Below, one piece after another: positions 9,212 to 50,662 of a DNA stretch of 64,000 bases (the stretch's first letter is position 1; each line of letters begins with the position of its first letter). Position numbers and translations under genes: made by a program. The notes under the pieces are model-generated. The model worked only from the letters and a program-made list of their open reading frames with translations. It searched no databases and had not been told where the DNA came from. The DNA lies in IMG/VR virus record IMGVR_UViG_3300045988_174698. One strand, given 5' to 3'. The stretch comes from a virus.

Positions 9212-9234
9212 AAGTATAATATAAGTGTGATAGA

Positions 9235-13573: not shown

Positions 13574-15451
13574 ATGAAGATAAAAAGATATCAAACAGGG
13601 GGTATATACTATACCCCCTTTTCTAGAGATTCAATAGCTCAGCAAGAATCTCAAAACACACCAAGTACAACAACAGATAATAAAAAAGAAGAACTTATAC
13701 AGAAGGAAATTATTAATGTACTGAAGGAAAATGGGCTTCCTAATGATGTTGATTATTTTCTGTCTAGAGCTAACACATTTCTAAGAAAGTCTCAAAATTT
13801 AGGATCGCTGTTTGAAGGAAACCAGGAAACATCTTACGATATGTCAGATTTAATTAGAATACAATCTTTGGCTAATAGAATTAAACATAATAACAGTTTA
13901 TATCAACAGGCTAGCAAACAAATTAATGATGAAGGAGCTGGATCAGAAGTAGCTATTACTAATACTGGTGGCATGTATGTTTTTGATAATGATAATGGCG
14001 TTAAAATAGTATCTTTAGATACATATTATGAAAATCCAGATAAATATAGGATATTAACAAACTCGGAGTTAATCCGACTTAGAGAAGAACAACCAGAGTT
14101 AGCTTACAATAGTGATATTCTAACTGACTTATCAAATACTGTTGGCATGGAGTCAATAGTAGATTATGTGAAATCAACTATTGGTGCTTTTGGTACTAAT
14201 AAATCTTCAAATCAATTTGATAGATATACTTCGAAGCAAAAAGATCAAATTGAAAAAGGATTTGAACAGTTGTTGGGTTTTGATTCTCCTGATGGCATAT
14301 ATAAAGTTACAGAATCTACTAATACTTCTGATCAAGGATATAGTGACGATAAAAGCTTAGAAGCTGCTGTTAATTATCTTTATAGAACATTACCTAGAAA
14401 TATGAAAAATGTCTTAAGAGCCAATGCAACAGCTGAAGGTTTAAATCCAAATGACCCCAAAGATGTTCAAAATTTATTAAAAATAGCAGTTATTGAACAT
14501 ACTGATCATACTAGGGAAATTAAACAACAATTAGATTATGATTCTACAGCTAGTAGTGCTAGTGGAAAAGGGTCATCAAGTAAACAGGTTGAAATGACTC
14601 GTGAGGAAATGATTACTACTGGAAACGGAGGCGTTCAATATACTCCTATAACTATTGCACATTCTAAGTCTAAAGGAGGTATAAAAGCTTTAGCACAGCC
14701 TTATGGCAAACCAATAGATACCACTGGTAAGCAAATTGGTATGGGTACACTTAGAGATGTGTTTGCTAAAGAAGATAGACTGGGATCAAGTTTAGCTTTA
14801 AACTCAATAACATTTGGAAATAGATTACTTACAGAAAGTGAATTAGATAAAGTAGTTTATGATGGAGTAAGTAATATTGAAAGAACATACTTACCGATTG
14901 ATCAAAACATATATGTGACAACAGGTAAGAAAACTCCTGATCTAGATGCACAAAATAGGTTTGAAAAATTCCAAGAATGACTTAATGCTGGATATGGAGT
15001 CACTCCAAATAGTATAACTATGAAGTTGAACGAACTAAATCTTGATATTTATAGAGAACCAGAAACAGGAGAATGAGCATTTAGAGAAGCCCATCCTTTT
15101 ATTATTGTCAATGGGTATGTTAGTGATAAAGCTGTTGACATTGATGACTCTGAATGAGTTGATCATGTAAATAGGGACGAGGGGTCTTATATATTTGATT
15201 TATACTCTAAATATATTAATTATGGGTCAGATACTCCTTCGAAAAGTAAACATAGAAATAACTTTGATGGAGGATTATTTGGTATAGGAGACGCATCCTC
15301 AATGTATAAAAGTGCTATATTTATTCCAATAACAGATAGTGCTATTGCAACAGTAGTATCTAATCATCAATTAACAAGTGCTAGTAATTATACAGATATG
15401 TTAAATCGCAGGAGACTACTACAGGAGTCTCAAATACAGACAAATTTCTAA
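13574..15451 (+). CDS. large virion protein (~625 aa), unknown function
   Basis: Frame 2 with internal TGAs (14978, 15040, 15136...); TAA at 15449. Confidence 0.55.
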
Positions 15452-15453
15452 TT

Positions 15454-21400: not shown

Positions 21401-23142
21401 ATAAAGAAATATTTGAAGCATCTCTTAAAATATTGTCTAGAGAAATTCAATCGTTTATTCCTGGATCATTAGGTCGTAAGTATTCTAATGAGATTCTAAA
21501 TCTATTAAAAACTACTCCTAAATTTTATATTATACCATATAATAATAGGGGACTATTAGTAGTAAGATTAACATTAGATTCTAAAACTGTTGATTTCCCA
21601 TTGTTAGTTACAGATCCAGTTATTGGAGAGTACTTTGGGGATATTTTAGCAGTATCGCCTCTTCGTAAGGAAAGTGCTATAGATTCAAATACTTCAGTTA
21701 ATTTATCAAATTTTAGACAATCAGCTATTAATCCAAAAGGATACTTTAGAGCATTTAATAAACCTGTTGTATTATCAGTAAATTCTGCGGAGAGAACTAA
21801 ATATAGTGGCGATCAACAAGAATGATTAAATCAAAGAAATAATGGTAATACATTTATGGTTGTGTCAAGTGACCCTTATGTAACTGATGATGATTTTAAA
21901 GAATTCTTAGCAGCCACTACTAATGGTTCTATTAAAACATATAGTACTCAACATGATTACAGATTTGCTCTAATTGGGATGAACTGATTAGTGTCTATAG
22001 ATGATATCATCAAGCAGTCTAATAATAGGAAAAATTATGATATTATTCCAGGATATAGAAGCTCAGTGATTGCTAAGTATGTATATAAAGTAGCTCCAGA
22101 TAGAGTTAGAGAGGCTATTAGAATACATTTAAATACCTCTAAATATCCTAACCAGCGTATTAGAATAAATGGTATAGTGTATAAAGATGCAGAATTAGCT
22201 ATCCAAAATATATCTAATGATTCTAATATAGAGTTTGGTTATGAAATTAATGGAGACTTTAAATATCAGTCTGGAGTAGCTACTATGAATACTATTTTGT
22301 ATAAGATAGTAAATAGAGAATCAGTAATTTCAATTAATGATGGTCAAATTGAACAATTAAAACAGTTATGTTTAGAGGCTCCTGAATTTAAAATGGGTAT
22401 TTATGGAAGAGATGTTATTGATACTCAAGTTAATCCTGCTGGAGATTATTGGTATGCTATTCAAGGTCATGATTATAATACTAATATACCCATGATTATT
22501 GGTAATGACTATAGTATTGATTTGTCAGCAGTTAATAACGAACAAGCAGCAGAAGATAAAAAAGTAGTAGAATCTGTTAACGAACAATTACAAGAGTTAA
22601 AACTTAATGAAGTTATTGTCACTAAAGATAACATAGATACAGCTATTGAATCTATTAATTCTGAAATAGCTTCTAAAGTTCAATCTACAGAATTTGATGT
22701 AGTTAAAGTTGAAGGAAAAGCAATTACAACAGAATCAGTATTTGATCCTAAAGTAATGATATCTAATCAACTAAATACTCCAAAAGAAACTATTCATTTT
22801 TATAGAGATAAGATTTCTGACTTTGAACCATTTTTTGTATCTTTGCAAGACAAGAATTATACATACGTTCTTGAAAAGAAAAATAATGTGTGAAATATTA
22901 GAACATTTAATATAGCAGATGCGTATATTAAATTTAGAGATGCTATGAATAGTATGAGTGATATTATTGTAGCTAATCCTAATTTAAGTAAGTATATAAC
23001 TGCTTTAATATTAAATCAGGAAGTAGATAAATTAACTGCAGAATCTTATTGAAATGAAATTAATAGTAACACTGCATTAATAGGGCTGCAGCAAGAAGTT
23101 GAAGAATATTTAATTAATAAATTAAAGAACAATGAGTGTTAA
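15454..23142 (+). CDS. giant virion protein (~2560 aa) with embedded SF1B (Dda/RecD/Pif1-like) helicase/ATPase domain
   Basis: Nine track ORFs (15454..15945 through 21991..22893) are all frame 1 and separated only by TGA; TAA at 23140. Helicase-like motifs: Walker A GGAGVGKT (~19850), motif III AFGDYKQNAVQ, motif VI VQGDEFDYIIID and LYTLTQRSRKGS. Confidence 0.65.
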
Positions 23143-26100
23143 GTGTGGATACACAATTAAGTATTATCCTCTATTAAGCAGAGTCTTTAATACAAGTACA
23201 GATGAAGAATTTAAATCGTTTTTAGAGGAATATTTTATAGATCCAGATAGTGTATATAGAATGTTCTTGGGTGGGATTTCAACAAATCCTACCCAGACAT
23301 CTATATTTGAACCTAAGAAAATTAGTAGTAGAACTGGATGAGAAGTAAAAACTGATAGTAAATCAGCACAACAGTTTTATATTGGACAGTCTGTTCAATA
23401 TAATAAGATGACAAGTGACTTTGTTAAGAGAATTATATCTTTATCAGTATTTGATCTAGCAAGTGAGCAGTTTATAGATGCTAATAGAAAAGTTGGAGAT
23501 CTAACAGTATTAAATAGAGGTATTTTTGAATACAAAAAGGAGTTGCTATGATATGTATTATCATATTTAGGAAAACCTTCTCCTAATTTGGATAGTATGA
23601 CTGACGTAGATATTGAATCTACTATAGAAAGTACACTATCTGAATTTAGTAGTTATATAAATAATTCTCCTAATCTTGATAATAAATATTATCAAGCTTA
23701 TAATTCATATGTAACTCTTAGAACATTTGACGATCTATTAAAGCAATTAACACCATTTGTCTCTATTAATCCAGAATATAGTAAGTCTTCAATATATTCT
23801 AGAAATAGATATATTTATAATGGTCCTAATGTTACTCACTATACAGGATTTAGTACTAATGAATTTATGTCTCAAGAAGAAAGTGTTAGTGACCTTGCTA
23901 AGATACTCTTAAATTATCTTCCAGAAGTTAATATAAATGGAGATATTATTGATGGGACCTCTATTTCGTTATCTGGGTTTAATTCTGTAATGGGGAAGAT
24001 GAAATTATGAGCTGAAGAAAGTTCTAATCCAGAAGTAAAAGAAGAGCTTAAGAAAGGAACTAAAATGGATGTTAGTAAGCTCATATCTTTATATGAACAA
24101 GAACTATCTAACAGAAAAGTTTCTAATCCTGAGCATATAACTTATTTAAGATCAAAGTTATCAGCTATAAAAAGATTTATATATGACTCTAAAATGCATG
24201 AGGATATTAAAGACATGTTTACACATCTAATGGAAAAAACTGTTCTCTCAAGTTATGTTAGTTATGAGCAGAAAGATGGTAAAAGCATGGAAGTTAGAAA
24301 TCTAACACAACGTCCTATTAAAATGCAAAGAGAAGCAATAGTAGAAACAGTAAAGGCTATTACTCAATATTGAAAGCAAAATAGATCTAGATTTAATGAG
24401 TTACTTAGGAAGTATAATGTTAGAGGTATAGGTTCTGTTATATCTATTGGAGATAGTAGAATTACATTAGAGGGAAATGGAAAAATATCTATTACTGGTC
24501 CTATAAGTAATTTTAATGAAATAGTTGGGGACTTTGTTAATTTATTAATATCAGATGATTTTGATCAGGTAGCTAGTCAAGTATTTCCAAATAGTAACTA
24601 TACTAAGTATGAGTTATATGCTCCTGTATTAGGAACTGTAATTTTTGATGTTATCAACAACAGTAATACTAATCTCAATTTTGGACAGAGTAATGATTTA
24701 GGTAGAGTACTCAGTGTTATTAATGGATCAGATACAGTTAATGTCATTAAAAATGCAGAAGGTAATAACTTACCATTATATCAGATGATTTGTTTAAGTT
24801 ATCAACATAATGGTGTTTTTAATGAAATTAGTAAACAGATTGATGATAAAGATCTATATATGTCACAGTATCATGACAATGCTGTATATAAAAATATACA
24901 ACATGTCAAAAGTCCTAAAATTCGATCAGAAGTAACTATTAATGGAGTTACAAAGCAATCTTCTGCTCTTACAGCAAATGACGTTATGCACTTATCTATT
25001 GTATATGACTTTTATCAAGGCCTAACTATGGATCAATCTCATACTGAAGGATCTAGGTCTAAATCAGGAATTGTTGGTATTCAAAGTCATGTATATTCTG
25101 ATAAGAATAAACACTTTGTAATGCAGTTTGATTTAAATCAAACATGAGATTTTGGCAACGGTAATTCATTTAATATCAAATCTGTCCTAGATCAGTACTT
25201 TAAATCTGGAAATGAAATTGATTTAGAACCTATAAAGAAAGCTTGGTTTGAAAGTAATAAATCTCAGATAGAGAGTGTGATAGAAACTATTCTATCAGAT
25301 TATAGACAAGTATATCCAAATAAAGAATTTAATTCTATACATGATATTAAGGTATTCTTAGCTAAGAATAAAATAAATAAGGTTAGGGAAGATTTTGCTA
25401 GAGCTAATGTTGAATTTATTGATGAAATACATGCATCTAAAACTAAAGCAGGATGAGTGTTTAATGAAACTTTAGAAAATTTTGCTAATATATTTAGTAA
25501 TAGAGATAAGTTTAATGAGTTTTACAAAAGTCAGTTTACTAAATTTTTAGAGGATAGTTCTGGAGCTTGGTCCACTATTTCAGTAGATCAAAATATTGTT
25601 AACTCTTTTAAACAGAATAATCCTAAATTTGTAAAGGATGGTAAACTTCTCAAAGAAGTTAATGGGGTTATTAATCCTTTATTAGGTGCTTATTTTATTA
25701 CCGATTCATTTCTATCAAATGAATATAATAAAATGATGGTCGGAGATGTCTATGCTCACCCTAATAAAGAAAAAGAAAGTCCTACCACAAATGGATATCT
25801 AGATCATAGTCTAGCTTCTAGATGAATATCTCAGGTAAAACGTATGGTTATTTATGGAGCTACATATCATTCTCTCGCACAAGGTTTAAAAAATGGAGTG
25901 CCAGAAAGAGTTAAAATGGCTGTTATGTCTGATATGGGATCAAATGTAAGTAACATATCTGGAATGTCTAGTACTGTAGATTCTATGGATGGTTCAGGTT
26001 ATACTAGTCCATTTATGTCTAGATGAGAGAATGTATCTCTTATAGACGCTGCAGTAGGAGCTAACAAGAAAACTATCTTTCATGATGTTGATGCTAAACA

Positions 26101-28672
26101 CGGACTACCGAAATTACTTAAATGGGCTGAATATGAGATAACTAATGCTATCAGAAGAAATAGTTCTGATACTAGTATGGAAAACATCTTCAAGAAAATG
26201 CACAGTTTGGAATTGCCTTTAGATGTTACCATAGATTATGACAAGCAATTTGATGATCTATTCTTTAGGGATAATGTCAGTGGAAAATATTATAAAATAT
26301 TACATATTAATATCTCAAATAATGTAGCTCATAGAGAATTAGTTGAAGTTACTAAAGAAGGTGTTCCTATTAATCCTGATAATATTATTACTAATGATAA
26401 GCTAATTAAAAGTATATATGATATAGATCAAACATTTGGTGGTGCATGAGCTATGAAAATAGATAATCGTACCAATAATCTTCAGTATTCAGAACATAAT
26501 CTAGATTATACTAATCAAATTATTTGTGATTATGATCTTAAAGATTCTATGATTAGTTGGTTGGTAAATAAGTCAGCTATTAAAGTTGGAGCTTCAAATA
26601 TTAATGATGTAACTTCTTGAAATGATGGTACTCCATTATTATTTACTACAATGTCTACTAAGTTTGGAGGTGTTCAAATGAATGCTGATCATGAACTTGA
26701 TGAAGCAGAGGTAACTGAAATGACTCAAATGATTAGTGGTCTTGAACAAAACGGATATACTCATCATTTAGCAACACGAGTTTATGAAGAAATTGGTAAA
26801 TTCTGTTATGATGCTATTAGTAAAATTCAGGATATTATTTATAATGGAAATAAGGATGATCTTTACAAAATATTTGGAAAAGCTGTTATTAACGCATTTG
26901 CTGGCGGTAGTAAGGATACTCTAGGTTTAGCTCAGTCCTTTGTAAAACTTGCTCAGGAAGGACTAGAAAATAATAATTTAGAATATAGAATACCTTTTAG
27001 TTCTTCATCTATCAATGGCATTTTTAACTCTACAGTCACATCCTCTCTAGTAAGAGATGCGATTAGGCGTCACTACAATGGTGTTGCGGCAGTATTAAAT
27101 CCCTCATATAATGTAGTTCAATATCATACAATTAATGGTAACAATTATCGATATGAAGAATTAATAGATTTAATTGCAGAAGCTACAAGAGGTACAACTT
27201 ATGAGGGAATGACCGTAGATGATGCTGTAAATAAAGTTTTTGTTGTTGATACAAATGGAAATGTGGTTGTAAATCCATTTATTGATGATATTACTCCAGA
27301 TAACCCAGTAGATTTTGAGGATACTATTATCGTATGAGGAGAAAATAATCAAGTAGTAAAAATAGATAAAATAGATAGTTACAATAAATATATATACTAT
27401 CGATTATATGAGCCTGGGCGTATTAGTAGGTGGACAACTAAAGCTAAAAATCTTAAAGGATCAGATACTACTTTTGTAGCTAATGGACGTAAATATAGTA
27501 TGTTTGAAAGTCCTTATACTCAGGTGCTTCATTATTTTATTGAAAGTGATAGTAGTGCTACTAATATAGAGACCCTTAGAGATGAGCTACGTAGTGAAGT
27601 AATAAAATCAATACCTAATGAAAGAGCTGATGAAAATGTTATAGAGAATATAGTAAATAGCAGATTACAACTTATAGTAAATGAAATTACTCCATTTATG
27701 CCAAAAGGATTTACAGAAAAAACTTCATTTACAAAATATATTCCTAATATTAAAAAAGCTTTAATCAAAAAGCAGCAATCTGTTCTTAATAATTTAGCTG
27801 ATGGTAAGCCTATTGATTGAGGAGGATTAATGTTAAATGCTACAGAGTATAAAGTTATCCCAGCACAGATTATTATGGGTAAGCTTTATGCTAAAGAGTT
27901 AGGATTGCTTCCTGGTGATTCTATTGCTAAAATTAAGGAACAAGGTCCAGAGTTCTTTATAAATAGAATTGATGGCTACTACAATTTCTATGATAATGCA
28001 GATGAGTTAACTTATGACTGAACTTTATTTGATGGTGCAGGAAATAAGTTATATGTTAAACTTAGAAATCCTAAGATTAATGAACTGTTTACTAATTCAT
28101 CTTTAGATTCTGATTATAAGATTATTGATGGTTCAGTATACTTTAATGGTAATGAAATCTGCTCTTCTGAAGGAAAACAATTCTTAAAATATACTGATTC
28201 TGATAATGTTCAACATAATGTAGTTATTATTGATTCAATAGATAGACTCAAAGAGTTAGAAAATTCTAAGATGTTTACCTATACTCATAGAAATTATAGA
28301 ATTGATAACTATGTTGACTTAGTAAAAGAAGAGTTTGGAGAAGGAACATCTATTCAATTAACTTACCGACCAACTGGAAGTAGAAAATATACTACTAGTA
28401 ATATTGCTGAATTTAATGATAAACTTGAAATAATTCGAGCATTAGCTGAAAATCAAGATTATAATTGAACTAAACAAATTAGAAAATTAGCAGAAAATAA
28501 GTATAAATCTTTTGAAAAGAGTTTATATTTTGTTGGTACACGTATTCCTTGTCAGTCTATGCAATCGTTTGCTCCTATGGAAATTATTACATTTACTGAT
28601 AGTGAAGTAAATGAGGTATACGTTCCGACACAAATTTTCTACTTGGAAGGATCTGACTTGGATAAACTTTCT
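23132..28672 (+). CDS. exon 1 of an intron-split giant virion gene (~1847 aa of a ~2830-aa product)
   Basis: Eleven track ORFs from 23132 to 28468 are all in frame 2 and joined by TGA. The boundary is placed at U 28672 by frame arithmetic and a UUUCU/GGAAA P1 pairing. Confidence 0.55.
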
Positions 28673-29577
28673 ATGTTCAAGTAAAACTCTTTTAATTGCT
28701 GGAAACCCCTAACGTAAAGACGAGGGCAATCAGCAGCCAAGCCGTAACAAAACGGAAGGTTCAACGACTAATATTAATAACTTAATAATTCGACTTTAAT
28801 AGTATGAAACAGTTAAAAACACATTTAAATAAAATAGGAAGAAATTTAATAATTGCTATGTCTATAGGGGATGGGCATATAGCTAAAAAAGGATATTTAG
28901 ATATAAATCATTGTGAAGCTCAGAAAGAGTATTGTTTATGAAAATGGCAACTTTTAAAAGATAATGGAGTTAAAGTTGGCACGTTTAGAGAATGAAAACA
29001 AATAAATGGATATTCTAAAGGTAAAGAAGTAACTAAATATGGATTTCAAACAACAGTACTTGATTTTTGTAAAGTACTTAGACGAGTTGAATATGAGTAC
29101 GGAAAAACTAAATATAATAAAAAGTTACTTAAGCGACTTGGAGCTCAAGGGTTAGCAATATGAATAATGGATGATGGAGCATTACTTCGTAGATCTAAAA
29201 CAAATAAAGATGGAATACGAACATATTCAGGATTTTATATTACAATATCTACGTATTGTCCATTAGAGCAAGCTAATGATATTATAGAATATTTTAATGA
29301 AGAATGAGATATTTATCCGACTAAGGTTTTTGATAAAAGGCAGCAATCCTATATAATTAATTTTTGTGCCAGAGAAGGTAGAAAATTAATAGAAATTATA
29401 AAACCTTATATGTGTCCCCACATGATGTATAAGGTTCTTCCTGATAAAATAGAATGTGAAAACTACATGAAGTTATTAAAAGAAACAGCTGAAACTGCTG
29501 TTGAAGGTACACTAGAAATAGTGGAAATGGAGAGCGCGAAAGCGAAGATATAGTCTGATCTATATAGAAATATATAG
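28673..29577 (+). mobile_element. group I self-splicing intron 1 (905 nt) with a homing-endonuclease ORF
   Basis: Conserved group I P7 elements GGTTCAACGACTA (28758-28770) and AAGATATAGTC (29545-29555). Frame is restored with omega-G at 29577. It contains a LAGLIDADG ORF. Confidence 0.6.
28804..29553 (+). CDS. LAGLIDADG homing endonuclease (double-motif, ~250 aa), intron-encoded
   Basis: Motif 1 LIIAMSIGDGHI; motif 2 LAI-W(TGA)-IMDDGALL; C-terminal PYMCPHMMYKVL resembles I-SceI PYLIPQMMYKLP. The TAG stop lies inside the P7 3' strand. Confidence 0.85.
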
Positions 29578-30260
29578 TTAACACAATTGATAGATAAACA
29601 ATATATCCTTGGCTATTCATTATCATCTAATGGTCGTATTAATACTGATGAAAACTCAGCACCTTATTTACGAGCTGATGCATTAAGAAATAGAGTTGTA
29701 GATGGTGTATTTAGTATTATTCTTAATCCTAGAAACCAAATTAACTTAACAATGCCAGTAACTACTGATCGAATGCAAAGTCTTGCTAAAAGATCTAAAA
29801 TGGGTGAAGCTGCTAAATATATGAGTCCTTACAATCCAGCAAGTAAGTACTTAATGCAGATTCAAAATATGGTTGGTAAAGCAGTTATTGGTAATGTTGC
29901 TACGGCATTAAAAAGTTTCTTTGCCTTAAGCAACGTATATAATACCAAGTTTAGAGAGATTAATGAAGCAATTCAAACTGGTAATTTTGATATAGCTAGA
30001 ACGATGTTAAAAAGATATACATTTATCCATAATGATAGACTAATAACATTAGCTAATGTTAATATGGAAGTATTTGAGAGTCTACCTGAAAATACTCCTG
30101 AAGATATTAGACAAACTCTAGCTCAAGTAATTAGTTATGAGGATGCCTTAGATGATCAATCTATGGTACTTGGAGAACTTTTAAATAGTGCTACTGATTT
30201 TTTCATCAGAAAATTATTGAATAACTTGCCTATATTAATTTTTATTATTATCTTTGCACT
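29578..30260 (+). CDS. exon 2 of the split giant virion gene (~228 aa); the 3' boundary is uncertain
   Basis: Frame-1 protein-like ORF (track 29587..30264) lying between two complete sets of intron P7 elements. It is not HE-like. Confidence 0.5.
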
Positions 30261-31450
30261 ATAGATAAAAATAATTTAAAACAAATTAATATGGCAAAGA
30301 AATTAACAAATGAAGAAGTTGAAAAACTTCATAAAATGTATTTAGAAGGAATGACTTGTGAAGAAATTGGAAAACTTACAGGTCATAAAACAGAAACAGT
30401 ATCTAAATATCTAAAAGAGAATTATGATATAAAGCCTCAAAGAAAAATTGATTTAGTAATTTTATCAAAACTAGCAAAAGAGGGAAAAACAACTAAAGAA
30501 ATGGCAGAATATTTTAATGTACATCCTTCTGCTATATGCTATTGAAAAAAGTATTTTAATGAAGGAGATCTAAAGATTTCGCACCCTTTTTTGCAAGAAG
30601 ATCATCAATTATCTCATCTACAAGAACAAATGATTCTTGGCAGTTTATTAGGAGATATGAACATAGGAAAACCTAGAAAACATCATCCTACTTGTAGATT
30701 ATCCTTAGTACACTCAATTAAACAAAAAGAATTATTTATGAAGAAAGTAGAAATTCTTGGAGAATTTATGAGTAATTATAGAGAATATAGTTATTTAGAT
30801 AATAGAACAAATAAAATATATTCTACTATAAGAGGAAATAGTAAATCTCATAAAGTATTTAATGATATGTATAATAAACTATATATTAATGATATTAAAA
30901 CAATTACTAAAGAATATTTAGATATGATTAATCATCCAATAGCATTAGCTTACTGATTTATGGATGATGGAACGAATTCTGGACAAATAGCTACAAATTG
31001 TTTTTCTTTTGAAGAGGTTAAATTACTATCGAATTGACTAGAAAACAAATTTGGTATTATTACAACAATGCACAAAAATTTAAGAAATTATACTTTATAT
31101 ATAGTTGCTAGCTCTAGATTTGAATTTGATAATTTAATTTCTCCTTATATTATTCCTTCTATGAAATACAAATTAAAATTTTCTGAAATAGCAGAGTCAG
31201 TTAACTCCGTGAAAACGGGAAAGCCCTTAGAGATTTAAATACTAAACTATTATAGTAATATGATAGTGGCTAAGCTAATCACTTAGATATAGTAATAAGT
31301 TTAAATATTGGGTAATCCGTTACTAAGCTTCCTAATAGGAAGAAAGTTCAACGACTATCGAAATGCAGAAATGACAGAGTAGAGTAGAACTTAAGTAAGT
31401 TCGAAGTGCGGAGATCCTGTATAGGATAAGATATAGTCTGAACTCATAGG
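30261..31450 (+). mobile_element. group I self-splicing intron 2 (~1190 nt) with a homing-endonuclease ORF
   Basis: GTTCAACGACTA at 31346-31357 and AAGATATAGTC at 31428-31438. The putative omega-G at 31450 restores frame 0 of the downstream exon. Confidence 0.55.
30291..31238 (+). CDS. I-SceI-like LAGLIDADG homing endonuclease with N-terminal HTH domain (~315 aa)
   Basis: LGSLLGDMNIG (motif 1); ALAY-W(TGA)-FMDDG (motif 2, identical to I-SceI LAYWFMDDGG); LISPYIIPSMKYKL tail. Two in-frame TGAs (30543, 30954). Confidence 0.9.
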
Positions 31451-33761
31451 AAACTATGAGAGAACTTATGGAAACGATAAGTTCGTAACAAAATTGAATG
31501 CAAAGGAATTAATCCTTAAAAAAATTAATGCAGATACAAACTGGGTAGATATTTATACTATTTCTCTTATGTTAGGTGAATCACTAGATGAAATTGGTAA
31601 TTTAATGATTGATGATGATATAACAGAACTAGTAAATGATTTTACTACTAGTATGTTTAGTGATGAACAGAACTATGATAAAGTTCGTTATGTTGCTGAT
31701 AAAGCATATACCTCTGAAGGAGAGAAAAAAGAGAAATATCTACAATTGCTGGATAAAGTTATATCTGCGGATGAAGTACGTATCTTAGGAAAGATACTTA
31801 AAATTAATCAAGGTCTTCCTACAAACACTTCTGATTTATATAGTTATATTAAATCTATTGAAAAATATATAGAAAGTAGGTTTAATAGACAAATACTAGA
31901 AAAACAAGAAGAATATTTAAGAATTGAAAAGGAGTTAGAAAAAACTTGATTAACTCCTGAAAAGAAGGAAATATTAAAAGAGGAACGAAGATTACAAAAA
32001 ATATATCCAGAATTAGAAGAAGGGTCTTCATTATATAATTTCTATAATAAATACAATTTAATATATGAAGATATAAATGGTAATATTAGACATGGAGATT
32101 TAGAAGCCAAACTTGGTAAACCTAAAGAAGCTATAAAGGCTAGACAAGATTACTTTAAGTCTAGAAAAGAAATGGCTAATATCTGGCAATCTTTTGACTT
32201 AGTTAGATTTATTACCGATCCAATCTACAAACAGGAAAGTATTGAAAAATATGAACAAAATAAGGTTAATTTTAATATTTTGGAAGTAATCAGTGCAGTT
32301 CCTCATTTTAGAGAAATGTTTAATGTTCTTGCAATTAACAAAAGTGTTCTTAATAGTTTATCATCTAGAAATAGGTTAGAAGATATAATTCTAAACCAAC
32401 TTAGTAGGAACTTTGCTGGAGTTCGTATGGATGTAAGCAAACCACTAAATAAACTTGAAATTAGAACTATAAAAGATCAGATAGATAAGTATCTTATTAG
32501 ATCTTGGATTATTAGTAAAGGAATTGAAATAAATGTTCCCGCTAGTCCTAAGAATCCAGCTCCTTATATATTAAGATTGGATAATGAAAATAATATTAAC
32601 AAGTTTAGAAGTTATGTTGAAAACTACGCTATTCCTTTATTAAAGGATAAGTTGAAAAATAATAAGTTTGTTCAGCTATTAACTTTTGGACTAAGACAAG
32701 GAGTTCCATTCTATAAGCTACCACTTAACATGGTTCAAGTTGATAACACTCAGAAGACTAGGGCTTTATACGAAGAAGCATTATATGCTTTTAATAACCT
32801 TAATAAGGTCAAAATAACTGGTATAGATATGAACTTAGTGGATATGTTTTATCTATATAACTTAGTTGTTAATCAAGATAAATTTGGTCCTAATTCTATG
32901 ACTAGGATATTTGAAGACTTAGTATCATCTGGTAATGAAGATCTTCTTATATATGATTTTAATAATTGAATTGATAGTCAAAATATTGAAGACTTAGTTA
33001 ACAGATTTAGAACAGAAGAAAATAGTATTAGGTTTAATTTAGTAGAATCAACTCCTATTGTAGATGACACAAATTCTGATATTGGATTTAAAGAAACTCC
33101 TTTAGAAGAGGATATTGAAGAGGCTCAATATGAAGAATTAGCAGATAATCCTGTTAAAGAAAATAATGAAGTAGCTGAATATTATCAAACTAACCCTTCA
33201 ACTAAATCAAAACTTATAACAATAATTAAAGAATCTAATTTAAAAGGACTTCACATAGTTACAGATTCTGATTTAGTTAATGAAGATTCTACTACTAGAA
33301 ATGCTAGGGGATTTGTGAAGAATGGTGAAATCTATATTAATGTAGATAGAGCCGAAGATGATACAGTAGTCCATGAATTTAGCCATTTATATTTAGCAGA
33401 TGCTAAAGTAAATAGTCCTAATGAATACTATTCAGTACTAAGTAGAGTTAGAAATACAGGTACTTGGAAATATATGAGAGAGATACCTGAATATCAAAAT
33501 AAAAGAGGATCTGATTTTGATGAAGAGGTTCTAGCAACTTTAATTGAGCGAGCATATAATGAGGGATTAGGAGGAGCAGATTATGATGTTGCAATAGATG
33601 CTCTGAATCTTACATCTCCAGAATTTAAATCATTTATAAAATCTGATATTCTACCATCATTAGGAGAGACATTAATAGAGAATTATAAGGTATCTCAAAA
33701 GATAGCTACACTTAAAAATAAGCTCATCAAAGATAATATTATTAAAGAGGATTGTAAATAA
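31451..33761 (+). CDS. exon 3 of the split giant virion gene (~770 aa); contains an HExxH zincin-like motif (VVHEFSHLYL, ~33366-33395)
   Basis: Track ORFs 31494.., 32172.. and 33315.. are all frame 0 and joined by TGA; TAA at 33759-33761. Confidence 0.55.
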
Positions 33762-36700
33762 TGGAATGTACATATGAAACTACAATAAACGGTAAGAAGA
33801 TAAAGTTCAGCTCCGAAATGGAGCTGGACAACTTCTTATCAAGTAAATTAGCAGATTATCAAATAAACGAATCAGATTTAACTTTTCAAATTAATCCTAT
33901 AGATAGTACTATAGAGAAGGTAAATGCTATTACAAGTAAAGTTAAAAATGCTTCTATAGAATCTGTAATTATAAATGATGATGGAGATTCAGAAACTATA
34001 CTTAAGATTCCTGACTCAATAGGTACTACTAGATTTATTACATCTAATGGGGATCCTTCTAATATGCAAAAGGAATTAGTTCCTCCTTTTAACTTAAATG
34101 ATTTCTTAAAAAAAGAAAGAGAAAGATTAAGTGCAGAAGGAATGACTAAATCTCAAATTGATTCATATTTAGAAAAGTTACAAAAGTCTTGAACTCAGTT
34201 AACTGATTATGGTACTGAAATACATTCCTTATTTGAAAGTATTATTAATAATACTACATTCAAACCAACTAATTTGAGTGAAGAACAGGTATTACGTTTA
34301 ACTGAAGAATTTAAATCCTTTATTGAAGATATTAAATCTAAATATGGTAAAAATGCTAAAATCTTAACAGAAGTTCCTATAATATCAGATAAAATTCATG
34401 AAGCATATCAATCAGAAGGAATTAAAAGTATTAATGGTAGAATTGATATGCTAGTTATTGACCAGAGAGGATTTGCTCATATTTATGATTTTAAAGTTTC
34501 TAGAAAAGAAGTAGGAATATGAGAGGATACTAGAAACATACAAGGATCAACTACATGGCACTCTACTAAAAAACGTTCTGTGGGGTATCAGTTAGGAATA
34601 TATAAGAATATTCTAGCACAATATGGCATTACTGTAGGAGAAACAAACGTTGTTCCTATTAAAATAGATCCAGAATATAATGAAGATGGAACTATTAATA
34701 AGCTAAATGATGCTTATATTGATTTTACTAAAATAAAAGTAAATCCTAATGCTCCATATACAGAAACTATAAATACTATTCTTCCAGTAAAAACATTACT
34801 TGATGATATTGATCTTATAAACTCAATTCAGGAACCAATGACTAAATTTGTTCCTAATTATGCAGTAGAAACTCAGGTACAGAGAAATACAGTTACTGTG
34901 GATAAATACATTAATAATCCTAGAATTGTACACTATATTGATGACACTGACCCAGAACGAAAGTTTGGAAAATACTGAATTTGGAATAAATATAAGAAGA
35001 ATCGTAAAGTATATGCTAAAACAGAGGAGGAACTCAGAGAAAAAGTACAAGAATTAGTAAATGAAGAAAATAAACATATTCACTCTGAAATGTCTACCTT
35101 AGCGGATACCATTCAACAAATTATTGAAGGATATGGATCCATTGATGACTTAGCTGCTGATAACCCATTTAAGTCTGATTATTGTAAAAAGATATTTAGA
35201 AAATATTTAGTAAAAAAGAGTGAAACTGACTATGGATGAACTTTTCAAAATAATCCTAAATTTATAGCTGCAGGTATATTTGTATTTACTAAGGATGGTA
35301 AAATGGAAATAATATCTGTTACTCATAATGATATTCATTCAGTTGTTAATTTAGGTCTTGGCAAATCTATTCAAGGAGCAACTAAAAAGGATAGTGATAT
35401 TGATAGTCATGTAATAATGCAAGCATCTAACGGTAATATTGACCTTGTTAAAGTTATGTGTTTATTAAATAATATGCCTGAGGTACTTAAAGGATACAAA
35501 GTTAATAAAATAGAATCACATAATATTTGAATTCAAAAAGGTACTGAGACCTATTTAGAAACTCTTTTAGATAATTTTTCTGAATTATGCAGGATACATG
35601 GTATTACCAATAATCTTACATCTCAAAATTTTGCAACAACATTAGAAGCAGCTGTAAATATAATAAGAGATACTGCTGGTGAAGAATTACTATCTCACAT
35701 GGGTAATTGAGAATTTAATTTTAGTCCTAATGATATTGTAAATGGAGTTCCATTCATCTTGCAGAAAATGGAACAACTAAGAAAATTAAAATCTGCAGAT
35801 GGCCTTCGTACTGCTTTAAGAGAAGGCAAATGAAATTTTGATGATCCTATTCAGCTAGCATATATGTTATTAGGCAGAGCACTAAATAAACTTAACGGAT
35901 ACTCTATTTATATTGAACAAGATCCTAAATTGTGAGTAAATTTTTCTAGGGAAGGATGATACACTGGTTCATATGTGAATAGTGCTAGTAACTCTTCTTC
36001 TAAAAATATTCAAACATTAAGTAAAATATTTTCAGTAGCAGAAGCTCATATTAGAAGGAAAGAATTATCATACAAACCTAGGATTAGTAAAGTAGTTAAG
36101 GCTTTATATGAATACAATCACAGAAATAGACTTATTGGAGGTGAGGTTAAGTTTTTTGATAACTTATTTGTTAAGGATACAAACGGTAATATAGATAAAT
36201 CATTTAGACTAAAAAATCCTTCAGATAGTAGTTTGGCTAAGGAAGAATCTGACTTTATTAAGATGTTTCTAGAGATAGTAAATGATTTTAGATTTGATGG
36301 TAATCAAAGTAAAATAGCTAAAGCCATTGAAGACGGTTCTTACTATGAAGTTCCTGTTTCTATGGGAAGTACATCTACTCAAATCCACAATAAAGGATAT
36401 AAACAAGCCTTTACATCTAAATATAATGAAGCTTTAAACTTTCTAAAACTTCTTCCTGAACAAGAGCAACAATTTAGGGAATCAAAAGGAGAGCCAAAGG
36501 TATATAATAAATATAGATTAAATGGACTTAGTAGATCTGATTTAATTGAAAATTATGGGATAGATGGTCTAGAAACTCAACTTGAAGATTTGCTATTAAA
36601 TGTCATCCATACATACACAATGGAAGAAGTAATGAATGAATATCTTCCCAGACTTCAAGGTATTAAGATTGCCTTACAATATCAAACTGGGATGTTTGGA

Positions 36701-38161
36701 GTAGTTACTGATCATGTTTTAGAATATATAGATAAATTTATTGATGCTAACGTTTATAGTAAGCCTATTATGGCTAAAGAATTGCAAGGTGCATATAAGA
36801 TGTTATCTGTAGTTAAATCAATAACAACAGCTACCGCTCTCGGTTTAAATCTTAGATCAGGTATTCGAGAAATGATGCAGGGAATGTGAATACATCTAAG
36901 TAGAACTATGGCAGAAGCTTATGGAAAGGATCAGTTTACTAAAAAAGATGTTGCTAAAGCATGGGCTATTATATTTAAACAAAGTGTTAAAGATATTAAT
37001 ACTTTAACATTAATTGATGCCTTAAATGTGGATTATGGAATGGCTAACGCCGATCCCCATCAAGTCCAAGAGAGACTAAGTTCATCTAAAGCAGGTATTA
37101 AAAATTTAGATTCTGATTCACTATACTTCTTTAATAGAGTACCTGACTCGTATCATAGAATGGGATTATTAATTGCTAAGATGTTGCATGACGGATGTTA
37201 TGAAGCTCATAGTATTGTCAATGACCAACTTATCTATGATTTCAAAAAGGATAAAAGATTTAGTTTATTGTCTGATTCTAAAGCTGATAAGAATTCTATA
37301 GAGTATAAAAAGCAACATGCTTTATATACTGCTATGAGAGAACAGTTTAATAGAGAAGGATGAAATATCCAAGATGGAGATGATTTACCACGGGCTTATA
37401 CTATTCAAGAAGGAACTAGTATTAAATCGTTTGCGGAATTATGCTTTGGGCACTATGATAAAAGTACGCAAATGCTTATGAAACAAATGTTTCTAGGTGC
37501 TATGATTCTACAATTCAGAACATTCCTATCAGCTAAGTTTGAACAGTGGATATTAAAGCCAGATACTTATAATCAAGGTCAATACACTGAAAAATTTGAT
37601 GAAAATGGAGTAAGATATATTCGTATATTTACATTTGATGAAAAAGGAATTCCATCTGTTAGAATCGGTCTTGAAACAGAATTAAAACCTGATGATATTT
37701 GGGAACCTTACATTGAATGGCAAGGCAGATTTATGGAGGGAATTGCATATTCAATAATTAGTTTTGGAAAAACATTATACAAGTTAGATTTTAATGGTTT
37801 TAAAGAACTATGAAAAAATCCAACTAAAAGAGCTAATTTCTATTTATTCTTACATGATATGATCTGAATGTCTATACTTATGTGAATTGTTAAAGCTCTA
37901 TTTTTATCTGAAGAAGAAGATCTTGGACCTGTGGGTCATTTAGTAGGTACTTCATTATATACATCTTTTTCTGACGGGCCAATTACTAATATTATGGCTT
38001 CAATGTTTGGAGATTTAAATCCACCTATGCATAGCATAGTTGTGAACTTATATAGACAAACTTCTGGAATAATTACAGGAGATGTTAATTTATTTGATGC
38101 TGGTGTCAATTCATTTGGAGCATTAAATAGTTTAAAATATATTGGTGATCAGTTAGAATAA
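33761..38161 (+). CDS. giant virion protein (~1467 aa) with N-proximal PD-(D/E)xK (RecB/Cas4-like) nuclease motif
   Basis: Eight track ORFs 33761..38161 are all frame 2 and joined by TGA. 'GRIDMLVIDQRGFAHIYDFKVSRK' matches D...(D/E)xK nuclease motifs II-III (~34430-34510). Confidence 0.55.
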
Positions 38162-45928: not shown

Positions 45929-46168
45929 TTATCTTTTGTTAAGTTTAAATTTACCACAACGTAAAGAACCACTAAGCCCTAAATCTAAACTACCATAAAC
46001 ATAAGATTTATAGAAACTTCCATATGGGTTAGCCTCAAGACTCCAATCCTCTAAAGCTCCAATCTGATACATAATACTATCTATATTATCAATAGGAATC
46101 ATCGGTAAATCTAATTCTCTATTACTAGAATTGAGAAATTCTTCTATTAGTTGTTTAATCGTTTCCAT
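45929..46168 (-). CDS. hypothetical protein
   Basis: Track ORF overlapping the thyX stop. Confidence 0.4.
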   Translation of the reverse strand: METIKQLIEEFLNSSNRELDLPMIPIDNIDSIMYQIGALEDWSLEANPYGSFYKSYVYGSLDLGLSGSLRCGKFKLNKR

Positions 46169-47069
46169 CTAATAAGTTTCTTTTAATAAACTCTTCTTTT
46201 AAAGGAATAGCTAGTTCCTGAGCCTGAGGATGAGCTGCTTTATCAGTTCTAAGTTTAAAGAATCCTCTCCACTGTTCAATAGTACCAGTCATAATTAATT
46301 CTGTTTTTGTGCACAATGGAAGAATTTCTCTAGCCTCTTGAGCTTTACAACCTCTGTTAATAAGAGCTTTATAATTCACTTCAGCTGATTCACACTGAGA
46401 TAAGAAAATGTCAACAGAGTCTCCTTCAAAATGTTTTAGTATGGTATTGGGAATATTATTTTTATCTGCAGCATCTACCCAATCGTTATCCCAATATTGA
46501 TATCTAGCCTCCTTTAAATCAGTCCAATAAGGAATAATAAACGTAAGTTCGTTATTAAATTTATCGGAATTGTAATTGCAATATCTTGTTGATTGTTCCG
46601 CAAATGATAACACGCGATGGCGACAAAACTCACGACTTATAGAAATTGGAAGAATAAACTTTACTGTAATTCGTTTTTCATGATATTCAGTAGGTTCACA
46701 GAGATGTTTTAAATCGTCAAGCCAGCCATTTTCATATAAAACTCTGTAATTAGTTGTGATATGATAATTACCATAAGAATCTGTATTAATAACTGAGTAA
46801 GAATTAGAAAGGTATTGTTTAATTACCCAATTATCACCTATTATATTGGAAGCATGATCCTTATGAATATAAAGATATACAGTGCCATGTTCAAGCATTG
46901 CGGTATGCTGTCTATCCTTAATCATATTAACAAACTTCTCTGCAGAATCTTCTGTAATACGATCCTCTGACTTATAACATGTTCTTCCTGCTCTTTCAAT
47001 TTGTTTATATATTCCTTGAATACCTGGCTCTTGTTCTAAAATTTCAAAACTACTTTTAATAAGTTTCAT
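46155..47069 (-). CDS. thyX: flavin-dependent thymidylate synthase ThyX
   Basis: ThyX signature RHRxxSxxxxSxR present as CRHRVLSFAEQSTRY. Length 304 aa. Confidence 0.9.
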   Translation of the reverse strand: MKLIKSSFEILEQEPGIQGIYKQIERAGRTCYKSEDRITEDSAEKFVNMIKDRQHTAMLEHGTVYLYIHKDHASNIIGDNWVIKQYLSNSYSVINTDSYGNYHITTNYRVLYENGWLDDLKHLCEPTEYHEKRITVKFILPISISREFCRHRVLSFAEQSTRYCNYNSDKFNNELTFIIPYWTDLKEARYQYWDNDWVDAADKNNIPNTILKHFEGDSVDIFLSQCESAEVNYKALINRGCKAQEAREILPLCTKTELIMTGTIEQWRGFFKLRTDKAAHPQAQELAIPLKEEFIKRNLLDGND

Positions 47070-47870: not shown

Positions 47871-48328
47871 TATGTATTCATTTTATAAAACATTTGTATC
47901 TTTTCTTTCAAATCATATAGTATTGCTTTTTCCTGAACAGTATTTACAAATAGTTCGTACATATTATACTTTTCATCATTATATATTAACAACATATCAT
48001 TAATACTTACATCAATATAATTACCTCCTATATAATATCGTAATTTAAAATTAATATATGAATTATTACATTCATACTTAATATCTGTATAACATTCTGA
48101 AGCAATATTTAATAAATTATTAATAAAGTTCTTTGTATAAGATACAACCATTCTATTTGTAATTGGAATCCTACTCTTTGTTCGGTCTTCAATATTTCTA
48201 ATAACATCATTTACAACACTATCCCTTGCTATTATTGTAGCTTGATCTGATTCAATTTTACAAGTTCGAGATTGAAGATTAGAAACAAACAGTTGAATTT
48301 CTTTTAAAGTTAAATTTTCATCATTCAT
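47870..48328 (-). CDS. hypothetical protein (152 aa)
   Basis: Track ORF. Confidence 0.45.
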   Translation of the reverse strand: MNDENLTLKEIQLFVSNLQSRTCKIESDQATIIARDSVVNDVIRNIEDRTKSRIPITNRMVVSYTKNFINNLLNIASECYTDIKYECNNSYINFKLRYYIGGNYIDVSINDMLLIYNDEKYNMYELFVNTVQEKAILYDLKEKIQMFYKMNT

Positions 48329-49253
48329 TAAAATAATTTTAATTGTTTATGCTTAAACATACATACGATTTTTTGTGCTGCAGCTATATAAAAAGAATAA
48401 TTAATATTAGATGGTAATTCATCAGATTTATTAATAGTATTCAAAATTGTTACGCCAGAGTCAGTTAATAGTTTAATATAGTTATATCGTCTACCATTAG
48501 AATCTATTTTACATTTATATAGCCATGGACCATCAGTAGATATATAATATCGGTTAATACGTTGAATTAACTGACCATCATATTCTACAGAATAATCTTT
48601 ACTAACTTTTTGATAAGTTATAAACTTATTAATATCCTTACAAGCATAAATAGTATCTGCAACAGGAATTCCATCTGCTAAACATTTATTAATAGCTTCG
48701 GGAATAATAACTGCATCCATACCTTTGCCAAGTTTTACCTTGTCGATAAACATACCTTTTGTCTTTAAAAGACTTGGATCTTTTGTTTCAGAATAACCTT
48801 CCTTAATTGCAAGATAGTCATTAATAGCAAACTGATACATTGCTTCAAATCTATCCTCTTCAAGAGTAAGTTTAGTTAAGATTTCCCAATTCTTGCAAAT
48901 TTCTTGTACATTGGTATATTTGTTTCGTTTTAATAGTACAAATAATCCATCAGTATTAGCTTGAATTATTCTACAACCTGCTTGAACTAATTTCTCCGCT
49001 AACATTAATAACATCAATTGTCCATTAATTCTAATTTGCATAACAGCATATGGAGAATAACAAAAATTATGTTCATTTTGTAGATTACCAGACAAACCGT
49101 TTAAAGCAAGTTTTAGAGTTTCATTCTTAACTTTATTTCCATTATGTTTAGCTTCTAATCGTTCATCTCGAATTTGAGAGTAAACTTCAAGGAATTCTTT
49201 ACCAAGATGTTTTGGATAAAATCCATATTGTATAATAATGCTAGGATATAGTG
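48328..49253 (-). CDS. family B DNA polymerase, exon 2 (from SLYPSIII of motif A to the C-terminus; degenerate motif C ANTDG)
   Basis: Hand translation upstream of track ORF 48328..49095 gives ...ALYPSIIIQYGFYPKHLGKEF... The exon begins after an omega-G. Confidence 0.8.
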
Positions 49254-49638
49254 CATATCCATTTTAATTTTCGACTATATCTTAATTTTTATATCTAATT
49301 TGTTCTGAATTTAATTCAATGTAGTGTCATTTAAAGCCTTTATATGAAGCTTTTGTACCTTGACAACAACAATAAATGGATATAACCAAATTAAATTTAT
49401 AAAAATTCGCGGCGTTTCGAATAAAACCTTATAAAGTTTTATCCTACTCTCTTTCGAGATAGTCTGTGAACCTTGATCCTATAAGGATCCTTGGCTGCGG
49501 ATTATAATACTTATTAAGTTTTTACTTTCTCATAAGCGTTATCTTATGTGCTACACTATGTATTACTACTAGCTGCAGTATTAATAAGTTAAATTAAGTT
49601 CCCGCAATTAACCGCGTTTTACTTGCGCCACTATATTA
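49254..49638 (-). mobile_element. ORF-less group I intron (385 nt) inside motif A of the DNA polymerase
   Basis: Contains AAGGTTCACAGACTA (plus 49452-49475) and AAGATATAGTCG (plus 49272-49283), near-identical to the Tetrahymena P7 strands. P1 pairing UUGCGU/GGCGCAA. Splicing yields DIDVA-S-LYPSIII. Confidence 0.75.
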
Positions 49639-50662
49639 ACGCAACATCTATATCAATAAGCATTTCATCTTTTGTAGGTATAATTTCCTCAGGTTTATTA
49701 ACACTATGAATACCTCCAACTCCAACAGTATATTCTAATTCATCAAATATAAAATGTTTCTCATATCCTTTACGTCCAGGAGAAACTGTTTGCTTTTTCA
49801 TATCAGCTAATACACTTTTAAGTATAGGTGATTCAAACTCAATAAAAGGTAAAATAACCTCATTTAATGGAATTAAATCGCAAGGTGACCTCAAATCTTT
49901 AATTTGATTTCAGGTTTGTCCTGTTTTTTCAAGATACTTTTGAGTAATAATTTTCATTCCAATATTAACTCCATCTTTATTAAGTACCTTTACTCCATAC
50001 TCATCTTCAATAGCTATACGTAAATCAATATCCTTTTTACATCTATTTAATAATTCCTCAGTAGAATCAACATCATTAATATTATATTCTATCATTTTAG
50101 GAATTTCAGATACAGGAAGATAATCTTGGAAATCGCCTTCATATTCTTGAACATTTCGAAACTGCATAGTTACTTGCATCTCCTTTAACCCTACTCTCAA
50201 CTTTTGAGAATAAAGCATAGTTAACAAGTCTAATGTTTCAAAATAAATTTTATATTTCCACTTTGTTCAAGAACTAAAATTAGTATCAGTAGATTGAATT
50301 ATTAAATTACTAAGTTTAAATAAAGATGCGCATATCTCTGAATACGACATCTTTAACATTACTTTATGAAAATCAATAATATAATTAATAATAGGATTAT
50401 CATAATGAATATTATTGTATCCACAAAATATTTTATCTGTTTTAAACTGTAAGTTTGTAGTATAGTTTCTTTCTCAAATACCAATTTGAGATTGATTTCT
50501 AACAGTTCAAAATAAATCTACTAACTCTTGTAAATTATTCTTACGTTCAGATATTTCAAAAAATAAGCGTTCTCCTGTTTCTGTATTTTTTACAACACAG
50601 TGAAACACATTAGGAAATATTTCAATATCATAAACGTATACAGTTTTATTTCTAATTAACAT
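49639..50662 (-). CDS. family B DNA polymerase, exon 1 (3'-5' exonuclease domain and palm up to DIDVA)
   Basis: Code-4 translation gives Exo I YVYDIEIF, Exo II FCGYNNIHYDNPII and a second YNINDVDS block. Start ATG overlaps the upstream stop (TAATG). Three in-frame TGAs. Confidence 0.8.

Follow-up and report, generated by a model that had tools for sequence, protein, structure and literature searches.

Why does a phage DNA polymerase gene break off within its catalytic motif A and resume 385 nucleotides (nt) later, and is the intervening sequence removed? This question is raised by positions 49254..49638, on the minus strand, of the virus record IMGVR_UViG_3300045988_174698 from IMG/VR, a stretch of 64,000 nt that we refer to as the window. 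We conclude with high confidence that the interruption is a group I intron of the polymerase, an endonuclease-deleted copy of a mobile intron, with catalysis and splicing in vivo predicted from its features. The gene and its interruption are laid out as follows.

49639..50662, minus strand: exon 1 of the polymerase gene (PolB), from Met1 to the first base of the Ser342 codon; aligns with the polymerase of phage cr114_1 from residue 1
49254..49638, minus strand: 385-nt insert read as a group I intron, from the RF00028 alignment, covariation, the z-score of the minimum free energy (MFE) fold and restoration of the open reading frame (ORF)
49631..49633, minus strand: UAG stop in the exon-1 frame, at intron nt 6-8, within the loop of P1
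49254, minus strand: terminal G (omega-G) at the 3' splice site, from the sequence, with the junction set by homologues
48328..49253, minus strand: exon 2, from bases 2-3 of codon 342 to the stop, from alignment with cr114_1

Translated from the ATG at 50662, exon 1 reads ...KDEMLIDIDVA up to the insert, and its frame continues (...PTKDEMLIDIDVA-L-I) to a TAG stop at 49633..49631, which would halt any ribosome entering the intron while still inside the P1 loop. The insert follows U49639, begins with UAAUAUAG, and ends with GGAUAUG, of which G49254 is the final base. The coding frame picks up again at 49253 with CA CUA UAU CCU AGC AUU AUU AUA CAA, and the codon for Ser342 is split U|CA. Joining ...GAUGUUGCGU| to |CACUAUAU in silico yields the motif A sequence DIDVASLYPS, and the predicted ligated exons (...GAUGUUGCGU-CACUAUAUCC) would encode the junction-spanning peptide ...DIDVASLYPSIII. 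The intronless homologue in cr114_1 reads ...NEMLIDIDVASLYPSMLIEYGFYPKHLG across the junction, with IDIDVASLYPS uninterrupted, and D[IV]DV[AQE]SLYPS is likewise uninterrupted in 81 of the 81 intronless relatives examined. Therefore, excision of the insert restores the conserved host frame, and because intronless homologues read through it, the 3' junction is fixed after G49254. A first-pass annotation, made from the letters of this DNA, had already given the length of the insert, the preceding U, the terminal G, and the point at which the frame resumes, all at these positions, and the motif A that it proposed to restore is the one through which the relatives read. It had also placed TAG directly after DIDVA; the start of the insert and the in-frame TAG were correct, but the stop lies two codons into the insert.

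The joined exons (50662..49639 and 49253..48328) form a 1950-nt ORF of 649 amino acids (aa). Over residues 1-649, its product shares 63% identity with the polymerase of cr114_1, which has 665 aa and no interruption. At the DNA level, the region is 71-74% identical to 'DNA polymerase' genes of uncultured Suoliviridae crAss-like phages (cr114_1, cr53_1, cr125_1). Four TGA codons lie in frame in exon 1 (first bases 50509, 50476, 50269, and 49912), and two of these codons align exactly with Trp in cr114_1. The spliced polymerase matches PHROG 1252, 'DNA polymerase' (6.8e-147), and no Pfam family matches it at E <= 0.01. Its match to E. coli Pol II in the PDB is marginal (E 0.03), in an alignment that spans motifs B and C. 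Motif A (DIDVASLYPS), a motif B-like KLALNGLSGNL, and a motif C-like QANTDGLFV occur in the expected order, the latter two being aligned with the E. coli Pol II sequences KIIMNAFYGVL and YGDTDSTFV, and the Exo I-III motifs DIE, GYNNIHYDNP, and YNINDVDST sit upstream of motif A. The host gene therefore appears to be a crAss-like (Suoliviridae-type), divergent family-B-like DNA polymerase. The family-B label, used in the first-pass annotation as well, draws on the motifs, the PHROG match, the weak Pol II match, and the literature (PMC7886860), and receives no backing from Pfam.

Could the two halves be genes in their own right? GenBank annotates the interrupted polymerases of the relatives cr53_1 and cr118_1 as two 'DNA polymerase' coding sequences, as for a true split gene in which two separately translated polypeptides assemble and the 385 nt are an intergenic spacer. 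However, the break splits a codon midway through catalytic motif A, and exon 2 offers no in-frame ATG, GTG, or TTG until a TTG at 49095, 53 codons downstream. The interruptions in relatives hold homing-endonuclease genes (HNH in cr53_1), and the insertion in the IMG/VR stretch L004 has a homologous group I core. The group I core in the supposed spacer is complete, and the P1 and P10 pairings, described below, match exactly these exon ends. We consider a split gene very improbable.

The insert might instead be crossed during translation by readthrough, bypassing, or frameshifting, rather than being removed from the RNA, a thought encouraged by the reading of TGA as sense in this genome, which puts recoding in play. 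However, the first in-frame stop is TAG and not TGA, and each frame of the insert contains 7-15 TAA or TAG stops, with the longest ORF at most 36 codons even with TGA read as Trp. The ribosomal bypass in T4 gene 60 covers 50 nt, and we know of no precedent for one of 385 nt. With an RNA that shows all of the features of a group I intron, the probability of translational crossing is negligible. An intein was rejected owing to the stops in all frames, and a group II intron was rejected as well, with no such features found and a core that is group I.

The group I assignment is carried by a covariance-model alignment, by the predicted fold, and by covariation. In a search narrowed to 431 nt with lax filters, the full length of the Rfam model RF00028 (Intron_gpI; model positions 1-253) aligned to 49259..49647 (37.8 bits; E 3.1e-8). 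Within the aligned sequence are the core elements P, Q, R, and S (AAUUGCGGGAA, AAUCCGCAGCC, GUUCACAGACUA, and AAGAUAUAGUC). The strings AAGGUUCACAGACUA and AAGAUAUAGUCG, which the first-pass annotation had likened to the P7 strands of the Tetrahymena intron, are both present in the insert. When the intron and 10 nt of each exon were folded without constraints, the MFE fold had a z-score of -4.37, with 0 of 100 shuffled sequences as stable, and recovered P1, P3, P4, P5, P5a-c, P6, P6a, P7.1, P7.2, and P8, which are all of the non-pseudoknot helices.

More than 119 IMG/VR contigs contain the Q-R core pattern (AATCCGCAGCCAAG...AAGGTTCA), and nhmmer with the intron as the query identified 43 related copies. 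Because ORF-bearing relatives are unalignable across their 700-nt P8 inserts, covariation was scored on 22 distinct trimmed cores, aligned with MAFFT only and compared with the window structure, for helices P4, P5, P5a-c, P6, P6a, and P7; for distant members, the alignment of P5b, P5c, P3', and P8 is unreliable. In this set, 84.1% of the cells are paired, compared with 35-51% when the 3' partners are slid by 1-3 columns, and 31 of 47 pairs show changes on both sides. The covariation score of 0.408, against 0.129 for shuffled alignments, was reached by none of 500 shuffles. Pairing across the 22 sequences is 98% for P4, 98.5% for P5, 92% for P5a, 98% for P6, 97% for P6a, and 97% for P7. All three pairs of P5 and four of the five pairs of P6a covary, eight of the nine pairs of P5a have changed on both sides, and the outer pair of P7 covaries among GC, AU, CG, and UA. 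P3 was tested by a complement search, because the variability of P7.1 and P7.2 defeats MAFFT in that region: in 22 of 22 sequences, the 110 nt that follow P7 contain a perfect complement of the P3 5-mer, compared with 28% of cross-sequence controls, with variants such as CGCGG/CCGCG in the window, CCUCG/CGAGG in L004, and CAGGG/CCCUG in L105. Among the closest family members, A-U to G•U changes predominate where paired sites have been substituted, and the majority of the differences fall in loops or in sequence that codes for the endonuclease. The proposal of a group I intron in the first-pass annotation is thus borne out by the narrowed alignment and by covariation in related introns.

The elements of the predicted ribozyme, all on the minus strand, are listed here from 5' to 3'.

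49639..49644, minus strand: P1 exon strand, UUGCGU, from the sequence; forms pairs both in the Rfam alignment and in the MFE fold made without constraints
49623..49636, minus strand: internal guide sequence, intron nt 3-16 (AUAUAGUG plus GCGCAA), from direct complementarity
49408..49616, minus strand: P3, CGCGG (49616..49612) with CCGCG (49412..49408), from the MFE fold and complement search
49496..49606, minus strand: P4, UGCGGG (49606..49601) with UCCGCA (49501..49496), from the Rfam alignment, covariation, and MFE fold
49470..49495, minus strand: P6, GCC/GGU, and P6a, GAUCCU/AGGAUC, from covariation and the MFE fold
49460..49466, minus strand: P7 5' strand, C-A(bulge)-GACUA, within the R element GUUCACAGACUA, from the Rfam alignment and covariation
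49419..49459, minus strand: P7.1, UCUC-GAAA-GAGA, and P7.2, GGAUAAAAC.../...GUUUUAUUC, from the unconstrained MFE fold
49284..49407, minus strand: P8, 10 bp, AAUUUUUAUA (49407..49398) with UAUAAAAAUU (49293..49284), from the MFE fold
49272..49277, minus strand: P7 3' strand, UAGUCG, within the S element AAGAUAUAGUC, from the Rfam alignment and covariation

P1 comprises 6 bp between UUGCGU (49644..49639) and GCGCAA, part of GGCGCAA at 49629..49623, and includes a U49639•G11 wobble pair at the 5' splice site; the sequence, the Rfam alignment, and the MFE fold all agree with the P1 pairing and U•G that had been proposed from the letters. The first 8 nt of exon 2, CACUAUAU (49253..49246), are the perfect complement of intron nt 3-10, AUAUAGUG, giving an 8-bp P10 that the first-pass annotation does not mention. 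The P10 segment lies directly 5' of the P1 guide segment, and one 14-nt guide holds both exons. P4 encloses P5 and its three-way P5a/P5b/P5c extension, and its interval contains the P and Q elements, while P3 encloses the P4-P6 domain, the 5' strand of P7, P7.1, and P7.2. The pseudoknotted pairing of P7, C173-A174(bulge)-G175ACUA with UAGUC366-G367, follows from the R and S elements, and its G175-C366 pair is unchanged in 22 of 22 sequences. A G-C pair of P7 binds guanosine in group I introns, and G49464 (intron G175) with C49273 is the putative guanosine-binding pair here. P7.1, with its GAAA tetraloop, and P7.2, with 9-11 bp, both lie between P7 and P3'; a U•G pair of P7.2 in the window copy is C-G in L210. 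P8 encloses a loop of ~104 nt and is found at the same place in relatives, as AAUUUGGCA/UGCCAAAUU in L004 and UUCUUGC/GCAAGAA in L090. Under published criteria for P7.1 and P7.2, this pattern suggests subgroup IA, which is usual in phages (PMC3984707), with the assignment made at the IA level and IA1, IA2, and IA3 not separated.

In the mechanism that we propose, the pre-mRNA would fold into a core of P3-P8 and P4-P6, and the end of the 5' exon, UUGCGU, would pair with the guide GCGCAA as P1, holding the splice-site U in its U•G wobble. A free guanosine, bound to P7 at its G175-C366 pair, would attack after U49639. The terminal G49254 would then occupy the guanosine site, with the 3' exon CACUAUAU held by the guide AUAUAGUG as P10, and the freed 5' exon would attack after G49254. 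The ligated mRNA would encode the continuous 649-aa polymerase with its motif A, DIDVASLYPS.

Where did this intron come from? The same 3' junction is present in eight IMG/VR stretches, and the intron is ~1040-1044 nt long in each one with its 5' part covered (L205, L206, L209, L210, L211). These same-site introns (L210, L211, L118/L207, L209, L205, L206, L172, L208) share the insertion site GUUGCGU|...G|CACUAUA and the guide with the window copy, and their ribozymes are 96-100% identical to it. The introns of L210 and L211 are 1044 nt long and match the window intron with 99.3-99.6% identity over nt 1-268 and 100% over its last 117 nt, with 659 extra nt between the two matching parts. The extra 659 nt and the retained 3' part together encode a 239-aa GIY-YIG protein (Pfam 1.1e-10), located in P8. 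Only the end of this gene persists in the window.

49282..49370, minus strand: remnant of the GIY-YIG gene, its last 29 codons (...CCQGTKASYKGFKWHYIELNSEQIRYKN) and TAA stop, from alignment with L210, L211, and L172

The stop of the remnant (49284..49282) falls across the end of P8 and the J8/7 next to it. No microhomology is seen at the deletion junction, 49371|49370, which an exact-match search of IMG/VR viral contigs and JGI metagenome contigs did not find elsewhere. An intact homing-endonuclease ORF is absent from the window intron, and the earlier description of the intron as ORF-less holds functionally, but not to the letter, since the P8 loop keeps these 29 codons and the stop. Judged by its sequence, the window copy is a non-autonomous derivative and not an autonomous mobile intron.

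In L210 and L211, the exons on either side of the intron share only 76-83% identity with those of the window, compared with 99-100% for the introns, which indicates a recent move between diverged polymerase lineages. The best 80 polymerase relatives in IMG/VR are all intronless, including the closest at 80% aa identity; they yielded no homologues of the intron but served as examples of the empty site. Every intron-bearing allele with a readable 5' exon has GCG-U|CA-CUA-UA at the junction. The Ala codon GCG at this position (49642..49640 in the window) occurs in 0 of 81 intronless alleles (an example of such an allele is GATGTTGCTTCACTATATCC), which have GCA or GCT instead; the GCG/CACUAUA exon signature fits either co-conversion during homing or a constraint from P1 and P10. 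The ancestor would thus have been a 1044-nt mobile intron with a GIY-YIG homing endonuclease in its P8 loop, which spread horizontally into this polymerase lineage recently. A single deletion would then have removed 659 nt of the endonuclease gene, and with it the intron's own ability to home.

Several points weigh against a functional intron. Splicing itself is a prediction from sequence. No group I match came from either the Rfam gathering scan run on the whole window with default settings or an Rfam E-value scan of 3 kb, and the 37.8 bits of the narrowed search fall below the Rfam gathering cut-off of 50 bits, which is an operational threshold of one model and no structural definition. P5b and P5c are paired in only 43-65% of cells in the MAFFT alignment, probably due to misalignment. 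The intron lacks P2, and its P9 is vestigial, P7 being followed by only 18 nt before the terminal G. Furthermore, with a deletion this recent, selection on the shortened form itself is not demonstrable. The negative default scans are due to filters and the cut-off, not to absence of the intron. The Rfam check suggested in the first-pass annotation therefore gave a divided answer, with nothing from the default scans and a full-length alignment from the narrowed one, and the rule proposed there, that lack of a covariance-model hit would count against the intron, would misfire on a default Rfam scan.

Some of these points could be taken to mean that the insert is a splicing-dead relic in a pseudogene, disabled by the P8 deletion, by the missing P2 and P9, or by loss of a maturase-like function of the endonuclease. 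Loss of the endonuclease gene is a step of the intron degeneration cycle, and P9 is indeed minimal. However, the deletion is confined to the P8 loop, with both strands of P8 intact, and the core helices and junctions are identical to those of the ORF-bearing siblings except for one C-G to U•G change. These siblings have the same minimal P9, and both exons in the window remain open over their full length and retain all catalytic motifs. Endonucleases of GIY-YIG introns are not known to be generally required for splicing. A dead relic is very improbable.

Has the shortened intron been kept for a purpose? One speculative and rather unlikely possibility is that it serves as a passive shield, in which an occupied motif A site blocks GIY-YIG cleavage by co-infecting relatives, without the cost of an endonuclease. 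The full-length intron that these relatives carry is 99-100% identical to the window intron. If true, the intron would have an anti-competitor or marker-exclusion role and would be more than a decaying parasite, and expression of the polymerase would possibly have been made dependent on splicing.

The endonuclease-deleted intron favored here belongs to a family of elements already described. Crass-like phages of the Delta group (Suoliviridae) typically carry group I introns in PolB, and also in genes for the major capsid protein (MCP) and primase, and many of them read TGA as Trp (Yutin et al, 2021; PMC7886860). The introns in that study were detected through endonuclease domains (PMC7886860). 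They share the phage group, host gene, and class of element with the window intron, and interrupted polymerases occur in the relatives cr53_1, cr118_1, MT839577, and MT835588, but detection based on endonucleases would have missed ORF-less copies such as this one. Because crAss-like introns have so far been found via endonuclease genes, ORF-less copies are probably under-counted. The window intron adds a further case to the group I introns already published for PolB in these phages, and we have worked out its exact splice sites, structure, and deletion history. In the 'phages' collection of GenBank, blastn with the intron found only four records (MT839577.1, cr271_1 in two accessions, and Campylobacter phage C11), each a weak match that covers at most 40% of the intron and is not annotated at the matching position.

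The intron type found in MT839577.1 (L004 2494..3449; L191, L175, L148) interrupts the same motif A 5 nt upstream, at GAUGU|UGCAUCU. It has a homologous core (nhmmer E 2e-22) and a GIY-YIG ORF in P8, but a different guide, GCAUCG, which pairs with UGAUGU and fits its own exon, and it differs from the window intron by compensatory changes in P3, P5c, P6a, and P8. Adjacent positions in one catalytic motif are therefore the targets of two related intron lineages. The polymerase gene of relatives is interrupted at further positions. Insertions at residue 415/416 occur in cr53_1, which has an HNH ORF, cr118_1, and MT835588, and insertions in motif C, at QANT|DG, occur with another GIY-YIG ORF in L172, L205, and L206. 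GenBank enters the interrupted polymerases as two coding sequences each. The insertions that relatives carry in this gene are located as follows.

L172, from ~715 onward; L205, from 11671; L206, from 6538: further insertions in the polymerase gene of relatives
L002, 2721..3555; L003, 2679..3066; L005, 2721..3556: further insertions in the polymerase gene of relatives

Outside of crAss-like phages, one comparable description is that of the T4 nrdB intron, which has a truncated, defunct I-TevIII that is full length in phage RB3 (PMC1865063, PMC2790892). Like the window intron, it lies in a phage gene for nucleotide or DNA metabolism, has a partly deleted endonuclease with a full-length sibling in a related phage, and would be mobile only with endonuclease supplied in trans. 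The likeness is one of description: the host gene and phage lineage differ, and I-TevIII is of the HNH type. Self-splicing group I (IA2) introns have also long been known from the DNA polymerase genes of SPO1/SP82, Bastille, and cyanophage Pf-WMP3 (PMC3428280, PMC3984707). These also occupy conserved catalytic regions of the polymerase, often with P7.1 and P7.2, but in family A polymerases and with HNH nicking endonucleases, in contrast to the family-B-like polymerase and ancestral GIY-YIG of the window. The window intron leaves knowledge of group I introns in general unchanged. What the 1044-nt GIY-YIG intron and its 385-nt deletion derivative would offer is a snapshot of the homing cycle, with invasion followed by loss of the endonuclease.

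Two other group I cores lie on the plus strand of the window. One, at 31155..31460, aligns with RF00028 over its full length at 48.1 bits (E 2e-11), just below the cut-off, and matches the family profile with E 7e-38. It is situated between the stop-to-stop ORFs 30225..31238 and 31437..33761. The former, which overlaps the core in its 5' part, codes for a LAGLIDADG_2 endonuclease that includes HTH domains (Pfam 7e-35). The other is an intron at ~28682..29577, where RF00028 matches in two pieces (42.3 bits at 28694..28772 and 26.4 bits at 29544..29575), likewise a little short of the 50 bits, around a 249-aa LAGLIDADG_2 ORF at 28789..29553 (Pfam 9e-19). It interrupts a giant plus-strand gene, with an ORF of 1853 aa at 23126..28684 that continues at 29578. 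For method, the consequence is that none of the three group I introns in the window was picked up by a standard Rfam gathering scan.

Reading TGA as sense raises the coverage of the window by stop-to-stop ORFs from 74% to 95%. Five giant ORFs on the plus strand, of 1451-2585 aa, each contain 12-16 internal TGA codons.

939..5723, plus strand: giant ORF with internal TGAs
9220..13572, plus strand: giant ORF with internal TGAs
15388..23142, plus strand: giant ORF with internal TGAs
23126..28684, plus strand: giant ORF with internal TGAs
33758..38161, plus strand: giant ORF with internal TGAs

TGA acts as a sense codon throughout the window and is very probably read as Trp. It is found in the replication gene PolB and not in late genes only, and the GIY-YIG ORFs of the sibling introns contain TGA too. 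ARAGORN found no tRNA gene in the 64-kb window, and hence no UGA-suppressor tRNA there; the suppressor may lie elsewhere in the genome or be otherwise supplied. For annotation, the polymerase should be entered as one 649-aa protein rather than as two fragments, and its correct reading needs removal of the intron and TGA as Trp together. Slightly downstream of the polymerase, a 304-aa ORF on the minus strand (46155..47069), with an RHR...S motif, resembles by eye ThyX, a flavin-dependent thymidylate synthase.

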